Source of the DNA: an uncultured Methanosarcinales archaeon
Lineage (GTDB): Archaea; Nanobdellota; Nanobdellia; Woesearchaeales; ARS49
NCBI GenBank assembly: GCA_964637115.1
Contig: CAZWVL010000002.1
Coordinates: forward strand, 96,114 to 160,113
DNA length: 64,000 bases
Reading direction: 5' to 3'
Each line of letters starts with the position of its first letter. Position 1 is the stretch's first letter. The position numbers and the translations under genes are program-made. Positions 5,819-60,450 of this stretch are shown piece by piece. Below the pieces are notes generated by a model. That model saw nothing but the letters and a program-made list of their open reading frames with translations. It did not search any database and was not told where the DNA came from.

Positions 5819-6436
5819 ATGGAAAGCATAAACCAGCAAGTGTGGAAAGCGCTGCAGACTGACCCTGCGATAATGAGAGACTTACAAAGAAAGTTGGTCA
5901 ACACAAGAGCTTTGGCAAAATATTTGATACAAAAATATGACTTTAAAGTAAGCTTGGACGCAATTATTTCTTCAATAAGGCGCTTCCCGTTGGATGCTTA
6001 CCAAGAAGAAGAAAAAATACTGCAGCACATATTCAAGGAAGCAATTGTCAGCACAAAAAATAACATTGCCTGCGTTACTGTAAACATGGCTCCGAACGAA
6101 GCATTTGCAAAAATCTGCGGGCTAAACCTGCCCCTGCTGCGAATGACGACAGGAACTGAGGAAGTCAAGATCCTTGTTGAAAACGGCATGGCAGAAAAAA
6201 TCGCAAAACTTTTCAAAAATCCAGAAATTGAGCACAATCTGAGCGAGATAAGCATCACAGTTGCAGAGAAAGCACACAGGACAAAAGGAGTGCTGGCAAG
6301 AATGGCAGCAGAAATGGCCCTGGCAAACATAAACATACACGAGTTATGCATGTGCTCACCAGAATACTTGATTTACGTATCACAAAAAGACATTGTGAAA
6401 GCGCACGAAAGAATAATTACGCTCACACAAAGTTAA
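5819..6436 (+). CDS. ACT-domain-containing protein
   Basis: C-terminal KGVLARMAAEMALANINI ACT-like motif; N-terminal helical domain. Confidence 0.8.
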   Translation: MESINQQVWKALQTDPAIMRDLQRKLVNTRALAKYLIQKYDFKVSLDAIISSIRRFPLDAYQEEEKILQHIFKEAIVSTKNNIACVTVNMAPNEAFAKICGLNLPLLRMTTGTEEVKILVENGMAEKIAKLFKNPEIEHNLSEISITVAEKAHRTKGVLARMAAEMALANINIHELCMCSPEYLIYVSQKDIVKAHERIITLTQS

Positions 6437-6475
6437 TATAAGATAGAAGAGCATTTTAATAAAAAAAGGTGAATT

Positions 6476-7978
<1,503 letters not shown>

Positions 7979-37882: not shown

Positions 37883-38703
37883 TGCCATCAACCTGGGCTC
37901 CTATCGTGTTTTGGGTATTGCTAGTGCCATTACTGATAATAATGTTAATAGTGTATTTGCGCAGCAAGAAATTTTCCAGACTTGTCTTCATATTAAGCGT
38001 TTTTACGTACGCAATGACAGTCATGTACTGGATTGACGCTTACTTGCTAGGAAGAAACGCCATTGTTTTCCTTCTCGTAATTTCATCATTGCTAATGATG
38101 TTCGTCGGCTGGCTAATTCACAAAGAGAAAAGAGAAAAATCGTGGGGCGGATGGAAAATAGCCACGACATGCATGGCAGCCATAGCGATTATTGTAGCGC
38201 TAAGCGCATCACCGATTGGATGGAAAATTTCAACAAGTTCGACGCCCTCAATCAAACTGAGCGAGTTACAGCCAATCCTTGAAGAAGGACAGCCAAGTTA
38301 CAGCGCATCATTCCAGATTTACACAGTTACGGTAACCAATACATTCATTCCAAGACAATACGAACTGCCGCAAGCATCAGCATGCTTGTATAACATCGAG
38401 AAAAAAGCAGCAACGAATGCAAATGTCTTCTGGAGCGAGCCAGGAGTGCAGTCAGATTTCGGGCTTCCAGGCAACACAGTTGAAGTAGGCAGAGGAAGCA
38501 AAACAGCAACACTCAAAATCAGCCAGAGTCCATATTACAAGCCAGCGCCCCGCGAAGCAAAGCCAGTACAATTTGAGCCGCAAGTGTGGAATGAGCTTTA
38601 CTTGTTCTTGAGCACAGGTAGAACATATCAGTATGTCGACTGCTACAACTTTGACTCTGTAGACAAAAGCAAGGCGATAAAAATACTAATCTCTCAGGAC
38701 TAA
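37882..38703 (+). CDS. Membrane protein with exported C-terminal domain
   Basis: Four N-terminal TMs followed by a soluble domain. Confidence 0.7.
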   Translation: MPSTWAPIVFWVLLVPLLIIMLIVYLRSKKFSRLVFILSVFTYAMTVMYWIDAYLLGRNAIVFLLVISSLLMMFVGWLIHKEKREKSWGGWKIATTCMAAIAIIVALSASPIGWKISTSSTPSIKLSELQPILEEGQPSYSASFQIYTVTVTNTFIPRQYELPQASACLYNIEKKAATNANVFWSEPGVQSDFGLPGNTVEVGRGSKTATLKISQSPYYKPAPREAKPVQFEPQVWNELYLFLSTGRTYQYVDCYNFDSVDKSKAIKILISQD

Positions 38704-39291
38704 ACGCGCATCAACTGCCTTGCCTTCCTTTTCATTAATGAAGAACGGGTTAACATCTAATTCTTCAATATTCCTGATTTTTTCCGGCAATTTTGAGAGC
38801 GAGACCATCGCATCAATCAATGCCTTCATTTTGACAGGTTTCTGGCCTCTAACGCCGTGCAGCAAAGCCTTGCCTTTCAACTCATTCAACATCTGCTCGG
38901 CATCCTTGCCAGTAATCGGACACACGCGGAATGAAACGTCCCTGTAAACTTCAACAAAAATTCCGCCAATGCCTGTTAACAGCACGTGGCCAAATGAAGG
39001 ATCGTTCTTGATGCCAAGAAACATTTCAACACCAGAACAATGCTCTTGGACAAGCACTTTGCCCTGTTCAAGAAACTTTGAAGCAATTGTACGAAGTTCT
39101 GCCAAGTCGTGCACAATCTTCACACCGCCCACTTCTGTTTTATGAATAGCTTTTGGAGAGATAAGCTTCAACACGACAGGAAAACCGTAATTCTTCGAAT
39201 AACGTTCAACTTGCGCAAGACTGGAGGCAACGTGATGCTTGGCAACTGGAATGTTCAGTTTGCTTAAGGATTCGTCAACAGTTGATATCAT
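38686..39291 (-). CDS. acdB: ADP-forming acetate--CoA ligase beta subunit (ATP-grasp)
   Basis: FPVVLKLISP..HKTEVGGV, DPSFG, GIGGIFVEVYRDVSFR, ELDVNP, AVDAR. Confidence 0.93.
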   Translation of the reverse strand: MISTVDESLSKLNIPVAKHHVASSLAQVERYSKNYGFPVVLKLISPKAIHKTEVGGVKIVHDLAELRTIASKFLEQGKVLVQEHCSGVEMFLGIKNDPSFGHVLLTGIGGIFVEVYRDVSFRVCPITGKDAEQMLNELKGKALLHGVRGQKPVKMKALIDAMVSLSKLPEKIRNIEELDVNPFFINEKEGKAVDARLVLRD

Positions 39292-40487
39292 GTGCCCTCC
39301 ACCTTTCGCAATGCCCACAAGCCCAGCACAAAAAACACTATCACTGAAATCAAAGCAGCTTGATAGCTTACGAACTTTGCCAGCGCGCCAAAAATAATTG
39401 GGCCAAGAACGCCGGAAAACTTGTTGGTAAGCTCAAGAAAACCAAAAAACTGGCCGATGTCCTTATGCGCGACCATCTGCAGCAATTTCGGACGTTGAGC
39501 GGTCCAGACAGTGCCCAAAGCAGCGCCTCCCAGAGTGCCTGCAATAATGAAAACCGTAAGATTATCGACGAAATACAGCAGGCCGATAACAACGATCCAC
39601 GCTACGCCTGCCCAGACAAGCACTTTCTTAGGACCATATTTATCAGTCCACCTGCCCGAAAGGAAACTGCCGGCAACAGCGCCCAAAGACTGGATAGCGT
39701 ACACAACAAAAAAAGCCTGAACGCTTAAATGAATCTGCTCTCTTGCAAACAAGAACAGGAAAACAATGACTGCATTAATCGCGTCAGCATAAAAAAACAT
39801 TGCGAGAAGGAAAAAAAGAAAAGACCTGTGCTTGCGCAGATTCCTGAAAGTATTGATTACGTTGCGGATACTGTCACGAACGTGCATCCAGGTAGTGCGA
39901 CGATTTAATTTTGATTTTGGCTCATGAATTCCCAGGAATGTGAACAAGGAAAAAGCAAAGAACATTATGGCCGTAGCGGTAAAAATAGCACGCGCACCCT
40001 CAGAAGTTTCCCAGCCAAGCTGTGAAAGCAGAATGGCTGCAATTCCTAATGAGACTAGTGTGCCAACGTAACCCATGCCAGTGCCAATGCCTGACACGTA
40101 TCCGAGTTCGTCACGCTTGGCTATCTTAGGAAGTAGAGCGTTATATGTTGTTAATGCGGCGTGATAGGCGAAATTAGCGAAAAAGCCAGCAGCCAAAGCC
40201 CAGCCAAGCGAAACCTGTCCGACCAGCCAAGTTAGCAGGCAGCAGACAATAGTAAAAATAACAATAAACGGCATCCGCCTGCCAATAACATCGCTCCAAG
40301 CGCCGATGATGGGGACTATGAACCCTACCGCAAGCATACTTAATCCGAATACAAGACCAATCTGGAACTCATTGCCGCCAAGAAAAGTCTTAACGTAGAA
40401 TGGGAAGAAGAACGTGACAAACAATGCTGAGAAAATAGTATTTGCCAGGTCATACATGCCCCAGGCAAAAACCTCTTTCTTTTTCAT
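39288..40487 (-). CDS. MFS transporter (UMF1/Atg22-like)
   Basis: AWGMYDLANTIFS, YNALLP, SGIGTGMGYVG, ~12 TMs. Confidence 0.9.
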   Translation of the reverse strand: MKKKEVFAWGMYDLANTIFSALFVTFFFPFYVKTFLGGNEFQIGLVFGLSMLAVGFIVPIIGAWSDVIGRRMPFIVIFTIVCCLLTWLVGQVSLGWALAAGFFANFAYHAALTTYNALLPKIAKRDELGYVSGIGTGMGYVGTLVSLGIAAILLSQLGWETSEGARAIFTATAIMFFAFSLFTFLGIHEPKSKLNRRTTWMHVRDSIRNVINTFRNLRKHRSFLFFLLAMFFYADAINAVIVFLFLFAREQIHLSVQAFFVVYAIQSLGAVAGSFLSGRWTDKYGPKKVLVWAGVAWIVVIGLLYFVDNLTVFIIAGTLGGAALGTVWTAQRPKLLQMVAHKDIGQFFGFLELTNKFSGVLGPIIFGALAKFVSYQAALISVIVFFVLGLWALRKVEGT

Positions 40488-40564
40488 AACAGGGCAGTGT
40501 ATATTTCCTTTTAAAAACCTTGCCAACAAAAAGGTATATTAATCACTTAATCAACAAAGAAAGA

Positions 40565-40870
40565 ATGAACCACGACCGAACGCTTCTAATAACAGCATTT
40601 GTTAGCATATTCGTGCTGCTCGTAATAGGCACAATAGCATTCAAGCATATCGAAGGGTGGTCAACCGTTAATGCCCTGTATTTCACAGGAATGACTATGC
40701 TCACAGTGGGATACGGTGATATAACACCGCATACCACCGCAGGAAAAATAGCTGCTCTCATTTTCGCGTTTGTTTCAGTAGGAATAGCGTTGTATGCTGT
40801 CAACTTAATCGCGCGCATTGCATTCAGGCAAAAACTAGAAAGCACTAAATGGCTGCTGAAGAAAAAATAA
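40565..40870 (+). CDS. 2-TM potassium channel pore subunit
   Basis: ALYF...TVGYGDITP selectivity filter. Confidence 0.92.
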   Translation: MNHDRTLLITAFVSIFVLLVIGTIAFKHIEGWSTVNALYFTGMTMLTVGYGDITPHTTAGKIAALIFAFVSVGIALYAVNLIARIAFRQKLESTKWLLKKK

Positions 40871-41428
40871 TCATCTATCGTACTGCTTAAGCTTCTCAGC
40901 CCAATTAATAGTAAAGTTCTCGGTGTCAAGACAAGTAACTTGCATAAATTCAACCAACACTTCAACAGTCTGGGAGTCAATCATATCATTGTTAATTGAA
41001 ATGGTAGATGCAATCCAGCCCTTGAACAACCTGCCGCCCATATAATTAAAGCGCATTACCTTTTTCAGCTCAATAGGCCTTTTCTGCTGCTGCTCTTCCA
41101 GACCAATCCAAGTGAGATTATAGCAGGAAGCATTTCTTACTGCTGCTTCTAATTCCGGAATCATCTTGTGCGCTGCGCCGATAGTCAAGTCTTCAAACAC
41201 TTCCTCTGTCACGCTTCCTGTAATTGAATTTGAAGAGTTTTCGGTAATGTTTTGAGTTTCATTAAGAACATCTTCAGTTAAATTCAGCTCTTTAGTTGTG
41301 TTTTCAGGGACTGACTTGATTGTCTGCACAACTTCAGGAGAATAAACTGTTTCGTTTACTTCCGGCTCAACAAACTCCACGCATGCGGCCAGCAGTAATA
41401 GAACAGCCACAACCCATCCCGATTTCAT
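40871..41428 (-). CDS. Hypothetical lipoprotein
   Basis: LAAC lipobox, N/T/E-rich linker with NxT sequons. Confidence 0.65.
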   Translation of the reverse strand: MKSGWVVAVLLLLAACVEFVEPEVNETVYSPEVVQTIKSVPENTTKELNLTEDVLNETQNITENSSNSITGSVTEEVFEDLTIGAAHKMIPELEAAVRNASCYNLTWIGLEEQQQKRPIELKKVMRFNYMGGRLFKGWIASTISINNDMIDSQTVEVLVEFMQVTCLDTENFTINWAEKLKQYDR

Positions 41429-41488
41429 ATGCTATGCGTCCATATAGACGTATAAAAGGCTTTTGATGGTGAAAAATATAAAAGAAAA

Positions 41489-42235
41489 TTAAAGAATTTT
41501 CGTACACATCAACCCATTATCAAGCGCCGCAAGATAGAAGCTTTTGACTCTTGAATCGCAGCGGGATTTAGGCAGATGCGTTCCTGTAATTTTTTGCAGA
41601 TAGTCTTCCATCATATGACCGTAATCATTGATGTTATCAGCAATAATCATGCCGTTCTTGTTCATGATAGGAACTAACAGATCCAAGTACTTGCCATAGT
41701 TCTCCTTGTCCGCATCCAAAAAGACGAAATCAATTTTAGGACTTTTCCAGTTAGAAAGAATCTGCGATGCTTCGCCTTCGAGCAGCGTGATGTTTGTAAG
41801 ACCGCTCTTGCTGATGTGCTTTTTCGCCAAATCTATCTTCGGCTGAAGGAGTTCTATAGTATTCACTTTTCCTTTTGCGCATTTTGCAGCATTTGCCAGG
41901 AAAATAGTTGAAAATGCAGCTGAAGTGCCAATTTCCAGAATATGCTTGTAGCCTGCCAGCTCAATTATTCTTTTCATGACCATGGCAGATTTTCTTGGTA
42001 CTGACCAAAAGCCAATTTTCTCGTTCTTTTCCTTACGGCCAAAAGAGTGCGCGTTGTCCTGAGGAACAAAATACCATGTTTTCTCCAGTTTTTCAATTTC
42101 TGTAAGCGCGGATTGCTCATCGGCATTCAATTTATTGCGGAGAACTTCCATGGAATTCAGTTTGGCCGGAATTTTAAGCTTTGCCAAAACGTGTTTAGCA
42201 ATGAAAAGCTCGTCCATTTGGTCAATGCTTGTCAT
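41489..42235 (-). CDS. Class I SAM-dependent O-methyltransferase with N-terminal extension
   Basis: ILEIGTSAAFST, FLDADKENY, IIADNI. Confidence 0.85.
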   Translation of the reverse strand: MTSIDQMDELFIAKHVLAKLKIPAKLNSMEVLRNKLNADEQSALTEIEKLEKTWYFVPQDNAHSFGRKEKNEKIGFWSVPRKSAMVMKRIIELAGYKHILEIGTSAAFSTIFLANAAKCAKGKVNTIELLQPKIDLAKKHISKSGLTNITLLEGEASQILSNWKSPKIDFVFLDADKENYGKYLDLLVPIMNKNGMIIADNINDYGHMMEDYLQKITGTHLPKSRCDSRVKSFYLAALDNGLMCTKIL

Positions 42236-42236
42236 T

Positions 42237-43241
42237 TTAGCCTCCAAAATTCAACAATCCGTTGCCAGTATTGATGACAAGCACCGAGCTTTTCTGCGGG
42301 TCAAATGAAGGATCGATTTCCTTAAGCCTTGGAAGCAGAGCAAATCCGCTTGCACCGCTTGCTTCAGCAGAAATTCCATTAGTTTTCAAGACCTTCATTG
42401 CTTGCATAATTTCCTCGTCGCCAACATGATGAACAAGGTATGGCTTGCGCACACGGCCCTTTTTGTCGATAGTATCATGTCGTGTCCAACCTTTTCCGTC
42501 ACGTGCGAGCGCTTCTGTGTCAACCCAGATAGGGCCGAACAGCATAATCGCTATCGTATCAGGGTTTCCTGAGCTCACTGGAATGACCTTTGTCTTGAGA
42601 TTATTGTCGTTAATGTAATCGATAATCTCATTGCAGAGAATTCCAGCTCCAAAAGGCACTATTACGAAGTCTGGAGCATTTTTGAGCTGTTCAATGGCTT
42701 CGATAATGATGTTTACATACGCTGGCCTGTCGAGTCCTTCGGTTATGTCAACAAAGCAGTCAAGCACTTTGTTGTTTTTGCGGGCAAGTTCTTCAAGGTC
42801 CTTTTCGCGGTAGATTTTTGCACTTAAGTCTATATCCACGATGTCGCAAGTTTTGACAATTTTGCCAAGCACTTCTTTAGCATCAAGAATAGTGCCTTCG
42901 GAGTTGGGTCCAAACTTCTTTCCAAATAGCTTTGGAGGCACAAAAGCTACTGCATTGACGACTTTGCTTCCGAAGGCCTTGTTCAGCTGATCGCAGAAAA
43001 AACCCATGCTGAATGCAGTATTACCATATGAGATGGAGCCAAAGGTCGTTTTCTTTATAGGCAGACCTTTGTTCAGTGATTCAACTATCGGCTTGAGCAT
43101 TTCAAAGGCTAATCTGTCCTTGAACGTATTCGTCGGATTTTTTGTTTCGTCCTTCATGAAAAGGTGTGCTACATTAAACAATCCGCTTACATTCACGAGC
43201 GGCGTATTTCCGGGCTTTTGCAGTGTTATTTTTTGGTTCAT
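42237..43241 (-). CDS. PLP-dependent fold-type II enzyme (threonine-synthase-like, divergent)
   Basis: GNTPL, KDETKNPTNTFKDR (PLP Lys), SYGNT, VPFGAG, EASGA, INTGNG. Confidence 0.85.
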   Translation of the reverse strand: MNQKITLQKPGNTPLVNVSGLFNVAHLFMKDETKNPTNTFKDRLAFEMLKPIVESLNKGLPIKKTTFGSISYGNTAFSMGFFCDQLNKAFGSKVVNAVAFVPPKLFGKKFGPNSEGTILDAKEVLGKIVKTCDIVDIDLSAKIYREKDLEELARKNNKVLDCFVDITEGLDRPAYVNIIIEAIEQLKNAPDFVIVPFGAGILCNEIIDYINDNNLKTKVIPVSSGNPDTIAIMLFGPIWVDTEALARDGKGWTRHDTIDKKGRVRKPYLVHHVGDEEIMQAMKVLKTNGISAEASGASGFALLPRLKEIDPSFDPQKSSVLVINTGNGLLNFGG

Positions 43242-43358
43242 TTTGACCACCTCATTTATACTACTGCTAGGTGGTAAATTGGTATTTTAAGTTTTGTTAC
43301 CCCTTTTGGAGATATAAGATGAGAAAGCTTATATAGGCCGGAATGGGATTTTAGGCCA

Positions 43359-44087
43359 ATGGATGTTGAAATATTCAAAGAACTCGGATTTACGGAAAGA
43401 GAGATTAAAGTCTATCTGGCACTGCTTGAACTGGGGTCGAGTACAGTAGGCCCAATATCCGACAAGTCAGGATTACAGCATACTAAAGTCTATGAAACGC
43501 TGCAGAAGTTAATCGAAAAGGGGCTGGTGCACTATATCATCGTCTCAAAAACCAAGCATTTTGAAGCAGCTGACCCAAAACAAATCCTTTCAATGCTTGA
43601 AGAACGCAAGAGAAAATTCGCATCTGTTCTTGACGAGCTAGAGCTAAAGCAGAAGTTTGCAAAGGAAAAACAAGTTGCAATAGTGCACGACGGGTTCAAG
43701 GCGGTAAAAGCGCTGTTTAACAGAATAGCTGATGAGCTGCAAAAAGGAGACTTCTACTATGCATTTGCCCTCAAAGAAGCATATAGAGACACGTCAGCTC
43801 CGTTATTGCTTAGAACATTCCATCAAAAGTTAGCAGAGAAAAAGATAAATGACAAGGCGCTGGTGAGCATTGAAGTAAAAAAAGAAGTGAAGTCAGCATA
43901 CCAAGACAATAAAAACATACAACTAAGGTTTGTAAAAAGAAGCACGCCAATCGGCTGCATAATAATCAAAAACAAAGTAATCCAGCTCGTGTGGGGGGAA
44001 AGACCAACAGCAATTGAAACAACCTCCTCACAAATCTACCAGCAATACAAGAAATTTTTTGAAGAATTATGGGAGGAAGCAAAATGA
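43359..44087 (+). CDS. TrmB-family transcriptional regulator
   Basis: LGFTEREIKVYLALLELG...KVYETLQKLIEKGLV. Confidence 0.9.
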   Translation: MDVEIFKELGFTEREIKVYLALLELGSSTVGPISDKSGLQHTKVYETLQKLIEKGLVHYIIVSKTKHFEAADPKQILSMLEERKRKFASVLDELELKQKFAKEKQVAIVHDGFKAVKALFNRIADELQKGDFYYAFALKEAYRDTSAPLLLRTFHQKLAEKKINDKALVSIEVKKEVKSAYQDNKNIQLRFVKRSTPIGCIIIKNKVIQLVWGERPTAIETTSSQIYQQYKKFFEELWEEAK

Positions 44088-44135: not shown

Positions 44136-44732
44136 ATGGTATACCCAATTAGCAAGTTAGTGTTCTGGCCACTCTTATCGCTATTTATTAAAAGAATTGA
44201 TGGATTAAAGAACCTGCCGAAAAAACCATTCATATTTGCATCAAATCATTCAAGCTACATTGACGGCGTAATACTGATATTTCTTGTGGCATGGCACCGC
44301 AACATGCAATTGTGCGCGTTTGCGACAAACGAAAAATTCCTAGGACCATTCTGGAACATGATGTTCAACCATTTTGGCGCTATACGAGTGAACGGAAGCA
44401 TGGAAAAAGCACTCGAAGCACTAAAACAAGGAAAATCAATGGGAATATTTCCAGAAGGCGGAAGAACGTACGCTCACAAACTAAATCCCATCAAGCACAC
44501 AGGACTAGGAGTGCTCGCACTGTTAAGCAAAAAACCAGTTGTGCCCGTAGCAATGAACACCTGGCACTTCTGGAACAGATACCAAACAATTCCAAACTTC
44601 AAAAGCAACATCAAAATTACAATAGGAAAGCCAATACGGTTCAAAGGCAAACTAAACAAAAAAACAGCAAGGAAAGTAATCAACACAGTGTGGAAAGAGG
44701 TGAAACGCCTTGCGCGAATATCTCACGCTTAA
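44136..44732 (+). CDS. PlsC-like lysophospholipid acyltransferase
   Basis: NHSSYID (HX4D), IFPEGGRT, VPVA. Confidence 0.9.
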   Translation: MVYPISKLVFWPLLSLFIKRIDGLKNLPKKPFIFASNHSSYIDGVILIFLVAWHRNMQLCAFATNEKFLGPFWNMMFNHFGAIRVNGSMEKALEALKQGKSMGIFPEGGRTYAHKLNPIKHTGLGVLALLSKKPVVPVAMNTWHFWNRYQTIPNFKSNIKITIGKPIRFKGKLNKKTARKVINTVWKEVKRLARISHA

Positions 44733-46173
44733 ACAACTAAGGACGTTTACCTTTGAAAAAATAGAAAGACTGCAGAATATAAGATTTAAAGCAACGTGCA
44801 GGTTCATGCTGCCATACGTGCCATTCTATGCCAATATGTTCAAACAGTACGGAGTTGATCCATTCAGCCTGAAAAAAGTGGAGGACTGGAAAACAAAAGG
44901 ACTGCCATTGATAAAAAAAGCAACTTACATGAAAAACCCGAAGGATTTTGTTGTAACACCAGACCTTAAAAAAATATTTTACAACCATTTCTCATATCTT
45001 GACAATCAAGGCGAATATGGCAGTGCCGCGCACTTGCTCCTTTCCCACCATAAAAAAGAGATTCTTAAAAATTATTACTCGCCCAAAATGCTGATATTTT
45101 CAGGAGGAACAGAAAGCGGAAATCCAACGCCGGTTTTACTTACGGGAGCGCAGAAATTTGACAATTTAATGCCAATCCTAAAGATTATTGGCGATATAAT
45201 CTTCGAAAAAATTCCCATGGATAAAAAAACAGGAATGAACGTTTTCCCCTACGCGCCTCATTTAGGCTGGCACGCAGTACATCACGCCCTTGACATAAAT
45301 GCAGACTTGAACTTATGCACGGCAGCAGGAGGAGCAATCCCAACAGAAAGACTAATTGCGCTGGCTGGCAAATCACAACCAAACATCATTTGTGGCATGA
45401 GCGATTATCTTCGTAACAGATTCCTGCCAATGGCCATAGAGAAGAAAATAAGGCTGCCGGAGCAGGTATTGTTCATTAATGGAGCGCAAAAAATGCACGA
45501 TGCAGAAAGAGACAAAATAGCAGAACTCGCACGAAAAGTTGGCGTAATCCAGGCAATCGTGCTTGATTTGTACGGCGCGAGCGAATTCAAAGAAGCATTA
45601 TTGCCAGAATGTTCTCCAAAAAGCGGATACCATCACGTTGCACCACTAAGTACTATAATCAAGACAGTGGAAGTCGAGCACGCAACAGATGAAGTAATAG
45701 ATGACTGGAACTTCGCACCACAAGGCTACGCGGCAAGCTGGAACATTGACGGTGCGGGAACACTCCTGAATGGATATTTTATTGGAGACAAATACGACAA
45801 AGTAACAAGTGAAAAGTGCCAGCACTGCCAGCTAAATGTCACACGATTGTATGGAATCAACAGAATACGAGAAGTAGAAGCACAATACAGGCTAACTGGT
45901 GTTGTGGAAGAGAAAGTCAAAGGAACACGCGTTAATCTGGTATCAATAAGAGACACTGCACTTTCATTAACTGAAGTCAAGGAAGCGCAAGTCTATCTCA
46001 ACAGAAAAAAAGCAATAATTGAATTAAGAATAATAACGGATTCGTTCACAAAAGCAAAACAACAACTGACAAAACTGTTTGCGGGAGAAGAAATAAGGCC
46101 GAAAATCGTTCAAAGCACATTGCAGAAATTACAAGGCGACAAGATAAAGTTTGAGGGTATTAAAGTAGAATGA
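44710..46173 (+). CDS. Adenylate-forming ligase (PaaK/F390-synthetase-like)
   Basis: PFY..F...GVDP...LP..K N-terminus; SGGTESGNP P-loop variant; LYGASE. Confidence 0.7.
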   Translation: MREYLTLKQLRTFTFEKIERLQNIRFKATCRFMLPYVPFYANMFKQYGVDPFSLKKVEDWKTKGLPLIKKATYMKNPKDFVVTPDLKKIFYNHFSYLDNQGEYGSAAHLLLSHHKKEILKNYYSPKMLIFSGGTESGNPTPVLLTGAQKFDNLMPILKIIGDIIFEKIPMDKKTGMNVFPYAPHLGWHAVHHALDINADLNLCTAAGGAIPTERLIALAGKSQPNIICGMSDYLRNRFLPMAIEKKIRLPEQVLFINGAQKMHDAERDKIAELARKVGVIQAIVLDLYGASEFKEALLPECSPKSGYHHVAPLSTIIKTVEVEHATDEVIDDWNFAPQGYAASWNIDGAGTLLNGYFIGDKYDKVTSEKCQHCQLNVTRLYGINRIREVEAQYRLTGVVEEKVKGTRVNLVSIRDTALSLTEVKEAQVYLNRKKAIIELRIITDSFTKAKQQLTKLFAGEEIRPKIVQSTLQKLQGDKIKFEGIKVE

Positions 46174-47519
46174 ACCTTGACCCATTCTTTCACGCGAAAA
46201 GCATTGCAATCGTTGGAGCAGCAAGAGAGCCGGGAAAAGTAGGAAATACGATTTTGAAGCAGATGATGGGCAGAGATTTCAAGCTGTATCCAGTAAATCC
46301 GAATGCTGACAATATTCTCGGCTTGAAATGCTATGCAAGTGTACTGCAAATACCTACAAAAGTTGAACTTGCGGTAATTGCAACACCTGGCGCTACTGTA
46401 CCAAGCATACTTGATCAGTGCGGCAAGAAAGGAATCAAGCACGTTGTGATAATTTCAGCAGGCTTCAAAGAAATAGGCAACATGAAACTTGAGAAAGAAC
46501 TGCAGGATAAATTGAAAGGAAACGATATAACCTGCATTGGGCCGAATTGTCTAGGAATATTTGACGCGCATACAAACATGGACATGCTGTTTTTGCCCAA
46601 GGAACGATTACAACGGCCAAAACCGGGTGTTATATCATTCATTTCACAAAGCGGGGCGACAGGAAGTGCGGTTTTAGATTTGGCCGCGTATGAAAATTAT
46701 GGTTTTGCAAAGTTCATCAGCTACGGCAATGCTGCAAACGTGGATGAAAGCGATTTGCTGGACTATCTTTCAAAGGATCCTGATACCAAAGTCATCTGCA
46801 TGTATATTGAAGGAGCGCATAACGGCAGAAAATTCCTTGAAACGGCAAAAAGATGTAAAAAACCAATCATTGTAGTAAAGGGAGGAGTTACAGAAGCAGG
46901 AAGCAAAGCAGCAAAAAGCCACACGGGCGCTTTGGCAGGTAGCGCAGACGTTTATTATGGAGCGTTCAAGCAGGCAAATTTAGTTATTGCACATAAATTA
47001 GAAGAATTGTTTGAATTTGCCAAATTATTTGAGAAAGCACGAGTACGTGCAACAGGCGACAGAGTGCACATAATCACCAATGGCGGCGGATACGGCATTC
47101 TGACTGCAGATGCAATTACTCATTATGGACTACAATTGGCACAAGTAGGCAAAAAAATCAAAGATTTGCAGAAAGTTTTCCCTCCGACGGTAGTTGTAGA
47201 TAATCCAACTGATGTTCTTGGTGATGCAACTGTTGAAAGGTATAAGCTGGTGCTTGAAGCGGCGCTAAAAGACATTACAAATGACAGCATTGTAGTTACA
47301 GTACTTACACAAACGCCGCTTTTAGATGAAAGTTTAGTGCGCGTTATTAGAGACATCAACGCAAAAGCACACAAGCCGATAATTCTGGTAATAACCGGGA
47401 GCGAATATTCATTACGCATGAAAAAACAGTTTGAAGCAGCAGGATTAGCGTGCTTTACTTTCCCAGAGAACGCTGTTAGGGCGCTGGCGGCGTATACGCA
47501 TTACTGCTTGAATTCTTAA
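46170..47519 (+). CDS. acdA: ADP-forming acetate--CoA ligase alpha subunit
   Basis: IVGAAREPGKVG, IGPNCLG, SQSG, SYGN, SHTG (phospho-His), TNGGG, NPTD. Confidence 0.93.
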   Translation: MNLDPFFHAKSIAIVGAAREPGKVGNTILKQMMGRDFKLYPVNPNADNILGLKCYASVLQIPTKVELAVIATPGATVPSILDQCGKKGIKHVVIISAGFKEIGNMKLEKELQDKLKGNDITCIGPNCLGIFDAHTNMDMLFLPKERLQRPKPGVISFISQSGATGSAVLDLAAYENYGFAKFISYGNAANVDESDLLDYLSKDPDTKVICMYIEGAHNGRKFLETAKRCKKPIIVVKGGVTEAGSKAAKSHTGALAGSADVYYGAFKQANLVIAHKLEELFEFAKLFEKARVRATGDRVHIITNGGGYGILTADAITHYGLQLAQVGKKIKDLQKVFPPTVVVDNPTDVLGDATVERYKLVLEAALKDITNDSIVVTVLTQTPLLDESLVRVIRDINAKAHKPIILVITGSEYSLRMKKQFEAAGLACFTFPENAVRALAAYTHYCLNS

Positions 47520-47585: not shown

Positions 47586-48221
47586 ATGTCCATTCGTGAA
47601 TTGCTTAGCCCAAAAAATTGCTCATTCCTTCTTGTTGACTACCAGCCACAAATGCTTTTTGCAGTGCACTCGATTGATGGACAAACACTGATTAACAATG
47701 CAACAGGCCTTGCGAAGGCAGCCAAAGTCTTCAAGATCCCTACAGTCTTAACCACAATCTCAGAAAAGAGTTTCAGCGGTCCTATTTTCCCTGAAGTATT
47801 GAATGTTTTATCAAAAATCAAGCCAATCGACAGGACAAGCATCAACTGCTGGGAAGACAAAAAAGTAGTTGCTGCAGTTGAGAAAAGTGGAAGGAAAAAA
47901 CTGGTCGTCGCAGGATTATGGACTACGCTGTGCGTCGGCATGCCAGTGATTCACGCGCTCGAAGCAGGTTATGAAGTATATTTCGTTGTAGACGCCTGCG
48001 GCGATGTTAGCAACACGGCGCACGATATGGCCGTAAAGCGGATGATCCAAGCAGGCGCAGTGCCCGTTACCTGGCTGCAAGTGCTCCTAGAAATCCAACG
48101 AGACTGGGCATATAAAGAAACCTATGATGCAGTTCTCCAAGTGGCAAGGGAGCACTCAGGCGCGTACGGAACAGGCATTCGCTATGCAGATGCCATGATC
48201 TGGAAGAAAAATAAACATTAA
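47586..48221 (+). CDS. Isochorismatase-family cysteine hydrolase (YcaC-like)
   Basis: LLVDYQP, DRTSINCWED, AGLWTTLCV, VVDACG. Confidence 0.9.
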   Translation: MSIRELLSPKNCSFLLVDYQPQMLFAVHSIDGQTLINNATGLAKAAKVFKIPTVLTTISEKSFSGPIFPEVLNVLSKIKPIDRTSINCWEDKKVVAAVEKSGRKKLVVAGLWTTLCVGMPVIHALEAGYEVYFVVDACGDVSNTAHDMAVKRMIQAGAVPVTWLQVLLEIQRDWAYKETYDAVLQVAREHSGAYGTGIRYADAMIWKKNKH

Positions 48222-49560: not shown

Positions 49561-50366
49561 AAGACCTGTCAAAAGAACTCGTTGTAAAAGAACTTGGAAA
49601 TGCGTTTATTTTGCTCAAGAAAAACCCATTCTGGCTGGTGATTGCGTCAGTGATTGACGCAGTGTTCTTTTTGGCATACGGATTTTTCACAACACCAGTA
49701 AGCGACAAAATAATTGAGCACTCTGTCTTGCTGACAAATCAATTGTCAGACCTGCTAAGACAGACTGGAGGAGTGCCAACAGGACTGCTGGCAAAGCTAT
49801 TTGGACCAGAACTATGGCCATACACGGCAAAACTATTGTCAATCATACTCATACTATTTGTAGTAATTTACATCCTGTATGTAATTTTCCACGGAAGCAG
49901 CTGGTGGATGGCAACACACATAGCAGGAGAGAAAGAAAAGTATGGGAAATATATGGCAGGATTTGCGAAAATAAACCTGTTCTGGATAGCCTGCTTAATC
50001 ATTTACAGATTCCTTGACGTGATAATTAGTTTACGCTATTTGCTGATACAGAAAATTGCGCCCGGAGCGCCGAATATTGCAGGGAAAGTTTTATTTGCAG
50101 TTTTATTGCTTGCTGTTATTGCAGCATTCTTCAGCTATCCATTCCTAAAAATCAAAACTTTGTTCAAAACACCAATGCGAACCAGCATTCCGCTCATCAT
50201 TCTCAGCACAAGCATCTATTTATGTGCACAATTCATTCTCAACATGATAGGCAAGGCAAACGTTAATGCTGCACTGCTTGCGGGATTAATTATTTTGTTC
50301 CCAACGATGAATTTAATACGTGTATATGTAACAAGAGTACTGAGCCATGTTCACGCACGCAATTAA
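49557..50366 (+). CDS. Multi-pass membrane hypothetical protein
   Basis: About six hydrophobic segments; overlaps lgt start. Confidence 0.7.
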   Translation: MKDLSKELVVKELGNAFILLKKNPFWLVIASVIDAVFFLAYGFFTTPVSDKIIEHSVLLTNQLSDLLRQTGGVPTGLLAKLFGPELWPYTAKLLSIILILFVVIYILYVIFHGSSWWMATHIAGEKEKYGKYMAGFAKINLFWIACLIIYRFLDVIISLRYLLIQKIAPGAPNIAGKVLFAVLLLAVIAAFFSYPFLKIKTLFKTPMRTSIPLIILSTSIYLCAQFILNMIGKANVNAALLAGLIILFPTMNLIRVYVTRVLSHVHARN

Positions 50367-51096
50367 CCCAACAATACTGCATTTAGGACCGCTTGAGATT
50401 AGATGGTATGGGTTAATGTACGTTTTTGCATTCTTTGTAACTTATTATTACGTCAGGGGCGCGATAAGACAAGGCAAGCTCAAATTAACTGAAAATGAAC
50501 TTGACTCGTTGCTTGGATGGATGGTAGTATGCATGATATTGGGCGCACGGCTGTTCTATGCAATATTCTATAATCCAACTTACTTTATGGACGCGCCGTG
50601 GAAAATACTATTTGTCTGGGAAGGAGGACTAAGCTTCCATGGCGGATTAGTTGGAGTTGCATTCGCAGCGTGGTGGTACGGCACAAGAAAAAAAGGAATA
50701 CCGTTCTTACATTTAGCAGACCTTTTCTGCGTTCCAATAGCACTCGGCAACGCATTTGGAAGAATAGGAAACTTCATCAACGGAGAACTGTATGGTGTTG
50801 CTACTAACTTGCCTTGGGGTGTTGTGTTTCCAGGAGCAGAAGGAGCAAGACACCCAACGCAAATATATGAGGCGCTCTATAATGTAGTAATCTTTGGCAT
50901 ACTTTACTCATTGCGCAACAAAGAATGGAAAGACGGCACATTGTTTGGCGTTTATTTGATGCTGTACGGCATATTCCGCTTTGGTGTTGAGTTTATCAAA
51001 GATTTGCCTTCTTATGGGCCGTTGACAATGGGGCAATGGCTGACGCTGCCGGTTTTCTTGATTGGAATATGGCTGGTGTGGCGCAGTAAAGAGTAG
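50347..51096 (+). CDS. lgt: Prolipoprotein diacylglyceryl transferase
   Basis: IRWYG, LGARL, WEGGLSFHGG, GRIGNFINGELYG, HPTQIYE, RFGVEF. Confidence 0.95.
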   Translation: MFTHAINPTILHLGPLEIRWYGLMYVFAFFVTYYYVRGAIRQGKLKLTENELDSLLGWMVVCMILGARLFYAIFYNPTYFMDAPWKILFVWEGGLSFHGGLVGVAFAAWWYGTRKKGIPFLHLADLFCVPIALGNAFGRIGNFINGELYGVATNLPWGVVFPGAEGARHPTQIYEALYNVVIFGILYSLRNKEWKDGTLFGVYLMLYGIFRFGVEFIKDLPSYGPLTMGQWLTLPVFLIGIWLVWRSKE

Positions 51097-58906: not shown

Positions 58907-59905
58907 ATGAAAAAGCTGCTGATATTGTTGATGTTTTTAGTTAGTTGTGCATCTCCTTCCAATGTAGAAGTTCTTGTTGAAAACCTTCAAGTTCCATGGG
59001 CAGTAGCGTTCATTAATGACGATTTTCTTTTTACAGAAAGAAATACGGGCACGGTATACCATTATGAAAATGGCCAAACAAGAGCCATCGGCACAATGCC
59101 TATTGCTCAAACAAGCGAAAGCGGACTTTTGGGCATTGCAGTAGACCCAAAATTTGAGAAGAACAAATACGTGTACGTCTATTACACTTATGGTGGCAAG
59201 GAATCGCACCTCAACAGAGTATCAAGGTTCAAGTATGATGAAATGCTGAAAGATGAAACAATACTCATTGACGCGATTCCCGGAGCAAAATACCATGATG
59301 GTGGCAGGTTGGAGTTTGGACCAGATGACAAATTATACGTGACAACAGGAGACGCACTCGAACCATCATCTGCACAAGACCTCAGCTCAACAGCAGGAAA
59401 GATATTGCGCATTAATACAGATGGAAGTATTCCAAAAGATAATCCGTTCCCAGGCTCCCCAGTCTATTCTTACGGTCACAGAAACCCTCAAGGACTTGCG
59501 TGGTATAATGGTATGATGATTGCTCCAGAGCACGGGTCAAGCCAGAACGATGAGATAAACATAATTGTTCCAGGAAACAACTACGGCTGGCCGATAGCGC
59601 AGTGCACTGCACATGAAGGATATATTGCGCCAATCCGCTGCTTTTCAGACTGGACGCTGGCGCCAGGAGGAGCAACCTTTGACAGCAATGGCAATCTATA
59701 CGTAGCAGGACTGAGAGGAGCGCAGATACGAAAATTTACGATGAAAGAAGGCCAGATTGTTGCTGAGGAAGTGTTCCTTGACAATTTAGGACGCCTGAGA
59801 GAAGTCAAGCATCATGACGGCTATCTGTACATCACCACATCAAACCAAGACGGCAGAGGAGCGCCAAGACTTGGAGATGACAAAATATTCAGAATACGCG
59901 TATGA
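58907..59905 (+). CDS. PQQ-dependent aldose sugar dehydrogenase-like lipoprotein
   Basis: LVSC lipobox; GLLGIAVDP, HDGGRLEFGPD, YSYGHRNPQG, NYGWP. Confidence 0.9.
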   Translation: MKKLLILLMFLVSCASPSNVEVLVENLQVPWAVAFINDDFLFTERNTGTVYHYENGQTRAIGTMPIAQTSESGLLGIAVDPKFEKNKYVYVYYTYGGKESHLNRVSRFKYDEMLKDETILIDAIPGAKYHDGGRLEFGPDDKLYVTTGDALEPSSAQDLSSTAGKILRINTDGSIPKDNPFPGSPVYSYGHRNPQGLAWYNGMMIAPEHGSSQNDEINIIVPGNNYGWPIAQCTAHEGYIAPIRCFSDWTLAPGGATFDSNGNLYVAGLRGAQIRKFTMKEGQIVAEEVFLDNLGRLREVKHHDGYLYITTSNQDGRGAPRLGDDKIFRIRV

Positions 59906-60450
59906 ATGAGTTAAGAAAATTATCAAACCAGCTCACGCTGCTTAGAATCGTGCTCGTTCCTGTTCTATGGGTGCTGGCAGCGCTCAAAATGAACACTGCC
60001 TTTGCAATTTTTCTCTTTACGGCAGGCTTGACAGACGCGCTTGATGGAATTGCTGCAAGGATGCTAAAGCAAAAATCTGACTTTGGAGTCTGGTTTGACT
60101 CATTTGCTGACAATCTTATAGCCGCATCTGCAGCATTCTGGACTTGGTTGCTTCTTCCAGATTTTGTTTATCAGAATCTTGCTATCATCAGCATCCTTGT
60201 TGTATTATTTGTACTAAGCCTTGGCCTGGGCTTTATCAAATATGGAAGAATGGTAGACTATCATATGTATGCAGGCAAAACGTCTGCTATTTTCCTATAC
60301 GTTTTTGTCGTGCATTCCCTGCTGTTTACACCAAATCAGATCTTTTTGTATATTACGGCAGCGGTAATTGCGATAGGGCTTCTTGAAGAAATACTTGTGA
60401 CACTTGTGAACAAATCATTCCAAAAGAACAAAAAGTCAATATTTTTCTAG
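59902..60450 (+). CDS. CDP-alcohol phosphatidyltransferase (PgsA-like)
   Basis: NQLTLLR, TDALDGIAAR...SDFG..FD..AD. Confidence 0.9.
   Translation: MNELRKLSNQLTLLRIVLVPVLWVLAALKMNTAFAIFLFTAGLTDALDGIAARMLKQKSDFGVWFDSFADNLIAASAAFWTWLLLPDFVYQNLAIISILVVLFVLSLGLGFIKYGRMVDYHMYAGKTSAIFLYVFVVHSLLFTPNQIFLYITAAVIAIGLLEEILVTLVNKSFQKNKKSIFF

Follow-up and report, generated by a model that had tools for sequence, protein, structure and literature searches.

What use would an archaeon have for a bacterial-type, PlsC-like acyltransferase whose gene overlaps that of an adenylate-forming ligase? The question is raised by a 64,000-nt stretch of DNA (positions 96,114 to 160,113 of contig CAZWVL010000002.1, GenBank assembly GCA_964637115.1; called "the window" below, with gene positions numbered within it) from an uncultured archaeon of the Woesearchaeales. 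On its + strand, three overlapping genes encode a 198-aa acyltransferase of the PlsC/LPLAT family (44136..44732; PF01553), a divergent 487-aa PaaK-fold adenylate-forming ligase with a TTG start (44710..46173; assigned by fold and P-loop), and AcdA, the 449-aa alpha subunit of an ADP-forming (NDP-forming) acyl-CoA synthetase (46170..47519; assigned by Pfam and TIGR02717). Together these are the core of a module conserved in some Woesearchaeota. The reading we favor, to which we give about an even chance, is that the module serves to build acids that the cell scavenges, probably fatty ones, into glycerol-3-phosphate (G3P) ester lipids, independently of acyl carrier protein (ACP).

The divide between archaeal ether and bacterial ester membranes, the "lipid divide", is a central open problem of early cell evolution, and the membrane supply of DPANN archaea is an unresolved question. 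Passages of Coleman et al., 2019 (PMC6431249) place PlsC and PlsY mainly in environmental Euryarchaeota, DPANN and Asgard, and interpret them as transfers from Bacteria; in corresponding passages, Yokobori et al., 2016 (PMC5059525) describe DPANN without glycerol-1-phosphate dehydrogenase (G1PDH) and report GpsA in Woesearchaeota, and Probst et al., 2020 (PMC7242380) propose that Candidate Phyla Radiation (CPR) bacteria and DPANN archaea scavenge and modify lipids. Since PlsC and GpsA in DPANN are already in print, in those parts of the first two papers at least, a PlsC-like gene in a DPANN archaeon is not in itself new. The published surveys give the DPANN homologs of PlsC and GpsA as presence or absence only; here the acyltransferase is assigned to a module that is conserved and can be read mechanistically, and two parallel module types are found in the same order. 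In searches of open-access text, no description was found of the PaaK-like ligase or of its coupling to the acyltransferase, to a major facilitator superfamily (MFS) transporter and to the ADP-forming acyl-CoA synthetase, nor of the fused analog with the same MFS partner or the acyltransferase-acyltransferase-GpsA operons that are described below.

Conservation of the gene cluster

The initial annotation, made from the letters alone, had described overlapping genes that couple the acyltransferase and the ligase to acdA, and this arrangement is borne out. The acyltransferase and ligase frames share 23 nt and the ligase and AcdA frames 4 nt (ATGA); Shine-Dalgarno-like motifs lie 5' of the ligase start (GAGGTGA) and of the acyltransferase start (AAGAGGT). 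Because the genes are conserved in many genomes, the three open reading frames (ORFs) are not a product of chance. A scan for the ligase, using one genome per species, gave 355 stretches with relatives, of which the best 80 loci were kept: 46 of DPANN type, at 33-85% identity, and 34 of Thorarchaeota or Promethearchaeota type, at about 30%. Among the 40 DPANN-type loci with at least 650 nt of upstream DNA, 35 have the acyltransferase abutting the ligase (34 upstream, 1 downstream), usually with an overlap. AcdA lies 3' of the ligase in 25 of 37 DPANN-type loci, and an MFS gene of the window type is found within 3.5 kb of it in 31 of 35, usually with AcdB, the partner subunit of AcdA, behind it. 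These neighborhoods support the prediction that ligase and acyltransferase are a functional pair. Within the window's own family, the window genome (G000) and G292 carry both genes and G044 carries neither.

In the window the MFS gene (39288..40529, - strand; MFS_1 and Atg22-like by Pfam) adjoins that of AcdB, the ATP-grasp beta subunit of the ADP-forming acyl-CoA synthetase (38686..39318, - strand; PF13549 at E 5e-51, and NCBIfam). In most relatives AcdB is found upstream of the MFS gene; given the neighbor counts in the DPANN-type loci, the ancestral layout had these two genes together on one strand, with acyltransferase, ligase and AcdA facing them on the opposite one. AcdA shows the Pfam domains Succ_CoA_lig, CoA_binding_2, CoA_binding and Ligase_CoA_2 and matches TIGR02717 over its full length (E 2.5e-137, 458.2 bits), though under the curated cut-off of 567.15; it is therefore taken as a member of the superfamily whose substrate the match does not fix. 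The MFS protein matches generic MFS and Atg22 models, with no LplT model among its NCBIfam matches, and weakly a lactate transporter model.

The acyltransferase

The acyltransferase matches PF01553 at E 1.5e-19 (70.6 bits, against a gathering score of 23). The two catalytic motifs that had been noted in it as intact are indeed so, and are kept in its relatives: HX4D is N37-H38-S-S-Y-I-D43 (NHSSYID) and FPEGxR is FPEGGR at residues 105-110. In 26 aligned acyltransferases, H38 and P106/E107/G108 are found in 26/26 and D43 and R110 in 25/26, as is, in 26/26, the block IV proline P137; in a second alignment (A2) H38 does not vary and at least 90% of the sequences have D43. There is one short hydrophobic N-terminal helix. 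A sequence search of the PDB gave 5kym at E 1.1e-7 (residues 21-187 of the query on 66-235 of the chain), and the AlphaFold2 model (pLDDT 88) likewise found 5kym_A, the Thermotoga PlsC, as its best Foldseek match (E 4.8e-10, TM 0.69, rmsd 3.6), followed by GPAT, LpxM and PatA. NCBIfam models of the Aas type match at E 6e-11 to 4e-6. Complex prediction for ligase plus acyltransferase scored 0.00 in two runs, which speaks neither for nor against binding.

The ligase

The ligase had been described as PaaK-like, with a variant P-loop (SGGTESGNP) preceded by an insertion of about 40 aa, and on both points that description was accurate. The P-loop, FSGGTESGNPTPV, lies at residues 130-142, and five of its positions -- F130, S131, G133, E135 and P139 -- are invariant in 30 homologs. 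The P-loop of canonical PaaK-type enzymes is of the SSGTTGKPT type. That of this family is FSGGTESGxPTPV, with the usual Lys position variable among the 30 homologs, so that the protein does not pass as having a canonical P-loop. The preceding insert amounts to about 41 residues relative to PaaK2, by profile-alignment offsets, and to between 27 (consensus) and 39 (first sequence) relative to the 13 nearest PaaK-like relatives (hhalign probability 100%, E 3.8e-68); it is modeled as three helices at 89-123, within a segment of approximately 85-123. K480, in the C-terminal domain, is kept in at least 90% of the 30 homologs and aligns with an invariant Lys of the 13 PaaK-like relatives; it would thus be the catalytic C-terminal lysine (A10). 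With its P-loop, YGASE motif, hinge and K480, the ligase looks catalytically complete.

No Pfam family matches the ligase at E<=0.01, and the NCBIfam matches are weak and N-terminal only (FlxY, PaaK and F390 synthetase, E 2e-5 to 1e-3), FlxY being the best. Its scores against the PaaK equivalogs TIGR02155 (18.6 bits, cut-off 646.3) and NF041878 (18.7 bits, cut-off 700) come from the N-terminal 80 or so residues alone, and it is not a member of either. The AlphaFold2 model (pLDDT 89, pTM 0.85) nevertheless clearly predicts a PaaK-type fold, of two domains with an N-terminal microdomain. Using Foldseek, the model matches BT_0428 at E 1.7e-20 and PaaK1 at about 5e-20, with TM up to 0.67/0.74; VIA-align Z scores are 30.3 for BT_0428, 29.9 for PaaK1 and 29.4 for 2-hydroxyisobutyryl-CoA ligase, with 18-19 for GH3 enzymes.

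The family is small. A search of 5.8 billion proteins gave 186 matches at E<=1e-3, while 1.84 billion cluster representatives included 421 relatives at E<=1e-3 and 38 at E<=1e-30; a protein-atlas search gave only clusters of the AMP-binding type and one Thorarchaeota cluster. The more distant relatives score best on the FlxY, PaaK and DVU_1553 models. A locus search with P0157, a single remote PaaK-like protein, found no locus. The 38 representatives point to a small, uncharacterized branch of the PaaK-type ligases.

Parallel architectures

Other Woesearchaeales encode fusion proteins of approximately 730-850 aa in which AMP-binding, PP-binding and PF01553 domains follow one another. The fusion is confirmed by Pfam in five loci (L086, L087, L088, L098 and L102, the last split into two ORFs) and indicated by phmmer and length in 10 others, for a total of 15. 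These loci lie within the series L086-L103 (for example L087:784-3219 and L093:1918-4458), and in three of them a small ORF of 105-112 aa overlaps the start of the fusion. In five of the 12 loci with enough upstream DNA, the gene immediately upstream of the fusion, on the same strand, is a full-length MFS gene of the window type (phmmer E 1e-92 to 1e-98). The best NCBIfam matches of the FadD-like AMP-binding domain are long-chain-fatty-acid-CoA ligases. None of the three genomes with a full-length close ligase (G000, G292 and G162) is among those with PF01553 frames of fusion length.

Elsewhere, tandem standalone acyltransferases adjoin GpsA in 6 of 7 loci, often together with EtfAB, an acyl-CoA dehydrogenase and a short-chain dehydrogenase/reductase (SDR). 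In a larger set of 41 archaeal loci, 38 have the genes in the order acyltransferase-acyltransferase-GpsA on a single strand, and contig ends cut the remaining three. In these loci from other Woesearchaeota (L104-L110 and L120-L161), EtfA/EtfB, acyl-CoA dehydrogenase and SDR genes often stand in front. The operon resembles a phosphatidate pathway of bacterial type, accompanied by a set of genes reminiscent of beta-oxidation.

A maximum-likelihood tree of 69 acyltransferases, built without a bacterial outgroup, puts the fusion domains in one clade (100/100) and all of the standalone acyltransferases in the other (100/100). The GpsA-linked proteins (98/82) are nested among the ligase-linked ones, which include the window protein. 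Phylogeny had been suggested at the outset as a check, and for the acyltransferase it places the window protein together with the GpsA-adjacent standalone enzymes, which supports a predicted tie of its family to G3P lipid synthesis. A derivation of the ligase-acyltransferase pair from a flexirubin cluster was also considered and was dropped: P0371, a relative of the acyltransferase labeled Flavobacteriales in one source, is mainly a Woesearchaeota protein and belongs to the GpsA-linked group, and the bacterial relatives were from Oligoflexia, with 50% identity, and from Dadabacteria and Thermodesulfobacteriota, with 41-43%.

In other orders of the class, remote ligase homologs, which match the family profile at E of about 1e-43 to 1e-50, overlap a hexapeptide-repeat acyltransferase of about 230 aa, in place of one of PlsC type, in L113, L114 and L116 and are divergent to it in L115. 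A remote homolog in G216 (L118) is divergent to an MFS gene of the window type (E 3e-114). The hexapeptide pairing fits a role of the ligase as supplier of the acyl donor.

Lipid genes of the genome and of the order

The genome comprises 1.27 Mb in 27 contigs (98.3% complete, 4.25% contamination), with the window on a 160-kb contig. Thermosome, an Elp3-like gene, FtsZ and a TrmB regulator on that contig give an archaeal context, and homologs of the genes studied carry the record labels Woesearchaeota, Nanoarchaeia or Nanoarchaeota. The operon sequence was traced to DNA runs of sediment metagenomes only (three studies, some possibly the source sample), with no RNA run listed.

No PP-binding protein or ACP was found in this genome, and no GGGPS, PlsY, Lnt, FadD-type AMP-binding ligase, acyl-CoA dehydrogenase or thiolase. 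G1PDH was not found either, the sole Fe-ADH_2 match in the genome being AroB, nor was DGGGPS, the sole UbiA resembling a decaprenyl-phosphate phosphoribosyltransferase; absence from a 98%-complete metagenome-assembled genome is strong evidence, though not proof. Judged from its gene content, the organism would be unable to make fatty acids or isoprenoid ether cores, which fits scavenging. Lnt was looked at as a possible source of lysolipid and, with no match in the genome, was set aside.

Other lipid genes are kept, among them a GpsA-like gene. A PlsB/GPAT-like acyltransferase of 395 aa (HKSHLD, FPERSRSYTG) is encoded just upstream of the window (C2:88582-89769, + strand), and about 5 kb beyond it, also upstream of the window, lies an overlapping pair of genes for a CarS-like cytidylyltransferase and PgsA (C2:94178-95187, - strand), the latter scoring 129 bits on TIGR00560, above the cut-off of 109. 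Within the window there is a bacterial-type prolipoprotein diacylglyceryl transferase, Lgt (50347..51096, + strand; PF01790 at E 4.5e-75, TIGR00544 at 203 bits with a cut-off of 118.9), a likely consumer of diacyl-glycerolipid. A CDP-alcohol phosphatidyltransferase (59902..60450, + strand; PF01066 at E 8.9e-20, with weak pgsA and clsA matches below their cut-offs) belongs to the context as a gene for head-group attachment.

The premise of the initial annotation that an archaeon needs no PlsC fails for this order. In a sample of 201 of its genomes, PF01553 acyltransferases occur in 105, a tally that includes four genomes flagged unpublished, of which no other use was made; Lgt occurs in 189 of the 201, and in none of four archaeal control genomes. 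GGGPS has one clear match among the 201, with 11 more that are partial and marginally above the cut-off. In a passage of a 2025 paper on archaeal lipoproteins (PMC12462473), archaeal Lgt homologs are stated not to have been identified.

Proposed pathway and alternatives

The genome is without acyl or isoprenoid synthesis and without ACP, has the ligase as its sole adenylate-forming enzyme, and yet keeps enzymes that would make CDP-activated lipid, phosphatidylglycerol and lipoproteins from G3P and activated acyl groups; the simplest account is therefore that the module is an entry point for scavenged acids. In the pathway proposed, the MFS protein would import the acid or flip a lysolipid. The ligase would adenylate the acid and hand it to a thiol, by analogy with PaaK-type enzymes most likely that of CoA, and the membrane-associated PlsC-family enzyme would move the acyl group onto a lyso-glycerolipid or an acceptor derived from G3P. 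The product could then enter the CarS/CdsA-like, PgsA and Lgt steps of this genome. Two variants may be envisaged, one in which imported lysolipids are re-acylated, as in Aas/LplT, and one in which the module would provide the second acylation step in a de novo synthesis of phosphatidate that uses the PlsB-like enzyme. We infer the identity of the acid, CoA as its carrier and the nature of the acceptor, and likewise the contribution of the ADP-forming acyl-CoA synthetase, which may interconvert acyl-CoA and acid or adjust the balance of ATP and CoA.

The initial annotation had gone further, proposing that the ligase activates a scavenged fatty acid which the acyltransferase puts on a lysolipid, so remodeling host lipids. 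Of this, the pairing of ligase with acyltransferase is upheld by the abutting genes and the parallel fusions, the tie to G3P lipids by the GpsA operons, and the scavenging by the gene inventory, while the acid would probably be fatty, the acceptor may be a lysolipid and the lipid may come from a host.

A number of observations weigh against salvage of fatty acids into G3P lipids. Block II of PlsC/LPLAT enzymes has a conserved Arg that binds the glycerol-phosphate acceptor. That of the window enzyme is shortened by about 10-16 residues compared with the GpsA-linked acyltransferases (AIRV-NGS vs AIPVDRExGG), and the Arg is not conserved among the ligase-linked enzymes, being present only in the closest clade; the acceptor may therefore not be lysophosphatidate. 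The score on TIGR00530 (AGP_acyltrn), 52.8 bits, is under the curated cut-off of 102.95. Several of the other lipid genes also fall short of their models: the GpsA-like gene has 186 bits on NF000942 (cut-off 257), the PlsB-like acyltransferase has E 2.5e-16 on TIGR03703, far below the cut-off, and the CarS-like enzyme, with PF01864 at E 4.8e-27, has 130.7 bits on NF003114 (cut-off 148). The top structural matches of the ligase have phenylacetate, 2-hydroxyisobutyrate, salicylate and 3-amino-4-hydroxybenzoate as substrates or ligands, going by the entry titles, and among those with a named ligand or substrate there is no long-chain fatty-acid enzyme. The hexapeptide pairing of the remote homologs shows that nothing intrinsic ties the ligase family to lipids, and none of the 34 Thorarchaeota-type ligase loci has an acyltransferase, AcdA or MFS neighbor; these loci are syntenic with one another (PAC2, tRNA-binding, cobW-like, E2F/DP, cyclophilin-like and VWA genes) and hold no lipid or acyl genes.

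Also to be counted here is the narrow distribution of the ligase: full-length close matches are found in only 3 of the 201 genomes of the order (G000, G292 and G162), with two more partial at E about 1e-27, so that, with PF01553 in 105, most such acyltransferases of the order must work without it. Many of the DPANN-type loci come from related genomes, and the synteny counts thus overstate the independent support. In a clade of six loci (L032 and L034-L038) the ligase is only 393-404 aa long and ends at the hinge, without the C-terminal domain (in L035 at approximately 6001-7180). These truncated ligases still overlap AcdA, and no C-domain-like sequence is found elsewhere in their loci; the persistence of the AcdA linkage suggests a real partnership around acyl-CoA.

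A wider reading is possible, though we lean against it: that the Woesearchaeales have largely given up isoprenoid ether lipids on glycerol-1-phosphate and live with bacterial-type acyl-ester membranes on G3P, made from scavenged acids, with the operon as one of three interchangeable entry modules. The other two may be the fusion of AMP-binding, carrier and acyltransferase domains and the operon of GpsA, two acyltransferases, Etf and acyl-CoA dehydrogenase, alongside the PaaK-like ligase with its acyltransferase and ADP-forming acyl-CoA synthetase. On this reading the divergent PaaK-fold enzyme would be a fatty-acyl ligase of a new kind, independent of ACP; since one clade keeps AcdA while losing the ligase C-domain, it may act together with AcdA.

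Ligase and acyltransferase may be coupled for an acyl group that is not fatty. An aromatic, hydroxy or short-chain acid could be activated by the ligase, as it is by characterized PaaK-type enzymes, and then esterified to a membrane acceptor such as a lipid or a glycan carrier, as a decoration of the cell surface or of lipid head groups; we consider this rather unlikely. It would suit the aromatic or short acids bound in the closest solved structures for which a ligand or substrate is named, the best, though weak, NCBIfam match of the ligase (FlxY, of flexirubin synthesis) and the high scores of its relatives on FlxY, PaaK and DVU_1553, as well as the degenerate block II and the hexapeptide acyltransferases with which the remote homologs pair. 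Hexapeptide acyltransferases often acylate sugars or amines. The window acyltransferase, however, clusters with those of the GpsA operons, the fusion analogs use a FadD-like domain whose best matches are long-chain-fatty-acid-CoA ligases, and the genome, with no other activator of fatty acids, has Lgt and PgsA, which need acyl lipids. If it is instead the acyltransferase that stands apart, an independent housekeeping neighbor, then the linkage would reflect shared acid/CoA energy metabolism, the ligase and AcdA/AcdB cycling an organic acid and its CoA ester and the MFS protein moving the acid. In most loci the module does have AcdA and AcdB at its sides, the overlap of AcdA with the ligase stop persists where the C-terminal domain is lost, and the weak lactate-transporter match of the MFS protein is in keeping with it. 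If an AMP-forming enzyme and an ADP-forming one both used the same acid, however, the result would be a futile cycle, and the acyltransferase is the most constant neighbor of all, usually overlapping the ligase start; with the fusions holding adenylation and acyl transfer in one chain, this explanation seems improbable.

The acceptor itself might be archaeal. Acylation of scavenged lyso-ether lipids, such as a monoalkyl glycerol phosphate of the host, would give mixed ether/ester lipids for CarS-like activation, and it is favored by the cytidylyltransferase, whose best match is of CarS rather than CdsA type, by a genome that lacks GGGPS and DGGGPS and so cannot finish archaeol itself, by the difference in block II from the GpsA-linked enzymes, and by the uptake and modification of host lipids by DPANN proposed in the passages of Probst et al., 2020 (PMC7242380). 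With the CarS score under its cut-off, and with the GpsA-like gene and the GpsA-linked sister acyltransferases pointing to G3P stereochemistry, it is very improbable.

Salvage of scavenged acids into G3P ester lipids is thus retained as the favored reading. A genome that has none of the known routes to ether cores, fatty acids or ACP, and that yet retains Lgt and PgsA, yields a testable claim: an archaeon that builds ester lipids from scavenged acids. A tiny, host-dependent archaeon without ether-lipid synthesis of its own, with a transporter, an unusual acid-activating enzyme and a bacterial-type acyltransferase, bears on the lipid divide.

Surrounding genes

The window departs from the ancestral layout by the insertion of five genes between the MFS gene and the acyltransferase (40520-44087), absent from that place in most relatives. 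They encode a small ion-channel-like membrane protein, a secreted protein without known family, an O-methyltransferase, an enzyme dependent on pyridoxal phosphate and, directly upstream of the acyltransferase, a TrmB-family transcription regulator (43359..44087, + strand; PF01978 at E 1.2e-18). This last is a possible local regulator of the operon; a TrmB match occurs in only one of the 46 DPANN-type loci, there distant and on the opposite strand, and its position next to the acyltransferase is found in the window only. Beyond AcdA, an isochorismatase/YcaC-like cysteine hydrolase is encoded at 47586..48221 (+ strand; PF00857 at E 1.3e-27, and NF041461 at 146.6 bits, below the cut-off of 310). 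It was matched in only one of the 80 loci, that of the closest relative (L001), and its membership in the module is therefore doubtful. Outside the window (C2:81226-83076, + strand), the same genome encodes a protein of 616 aa that is rich in Cys, contains a long tandem repeat of (T/S)PT and carries a membrane anchor at its C-terminus.

Comparison with known systems

Among characterized ligases, PaaK1/2 (2Y27, 2Y4O), BT_0428 (4R1L) and 2-hydroxyisobutyryl-CoA ligase (6HE0) share the whole-chain fold of the window protein, with rmsd 2.5-4.5 over 311-409 residues, and the N-terminal microdomain, hinge and C-terminal Lys are common to PaaK-type enzymes and to it; a subgroup of the PaaK-like relatives also has its CxxC-like segment. 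It differs from them in its low identity (14-19%), in a P-loop that is one residue longer and has no counterpart to the Lys of TGKPT, and in the helical insert of 27-41 residues before that loop. The acyltransferase has the fold of bacterial PlsC (Thermotoga maritima, 5KYM) at 25-27% identity, and keeps HX4D, FPEGxR and the block IV prolines. At 198 aa it is without the N-terminal part, of about 65 residues, of the Thermotoga enzyme, and it is set apart from bacterial PlsC also by the shortened block II without conserved Arg and the score under the TIGR00530 cut-off.

The woesearchaeal fusion proteins come from the same order of organisms and have the same type of MFS partner and an acyltransferase of the same superfamily, with adenylation joined to acyl transfer; they differ from the window module in their FadD-like adenylation domain, in their carrier domain, and in acyltransferase domains that form a separate clade (100/100). 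According to passages on the lysophospholipid re-acylation system of E. coli, Aas and LplT (J Biol Chem 2024, PMC11416262), that system likewise links an MFS transporter, an adenylate-forming enzyme and a PlsC-family acyltransferase, and Aas fuses adenylation and acyltransferase parts, as the sister Woesearchaeales do. The window ligase, however, has the PaaK fold and is not a FadD/AAS-type AMP-binding enzyme; with no ACP or PP-binding match in the genome, ACP-dependent acyl-ACP synthetase chemistry does not apply; the MFS protein is Atg22-like, without a match to an LplT model; and the genes are separate, with an ADP-forming acyl-CoA synthetase in the module. By analogy, then, the proposed module would work like Aas/LplT or like FadD plus PlsC, with a non-orthologous ligase in the activating role, and would be a member of neither system.

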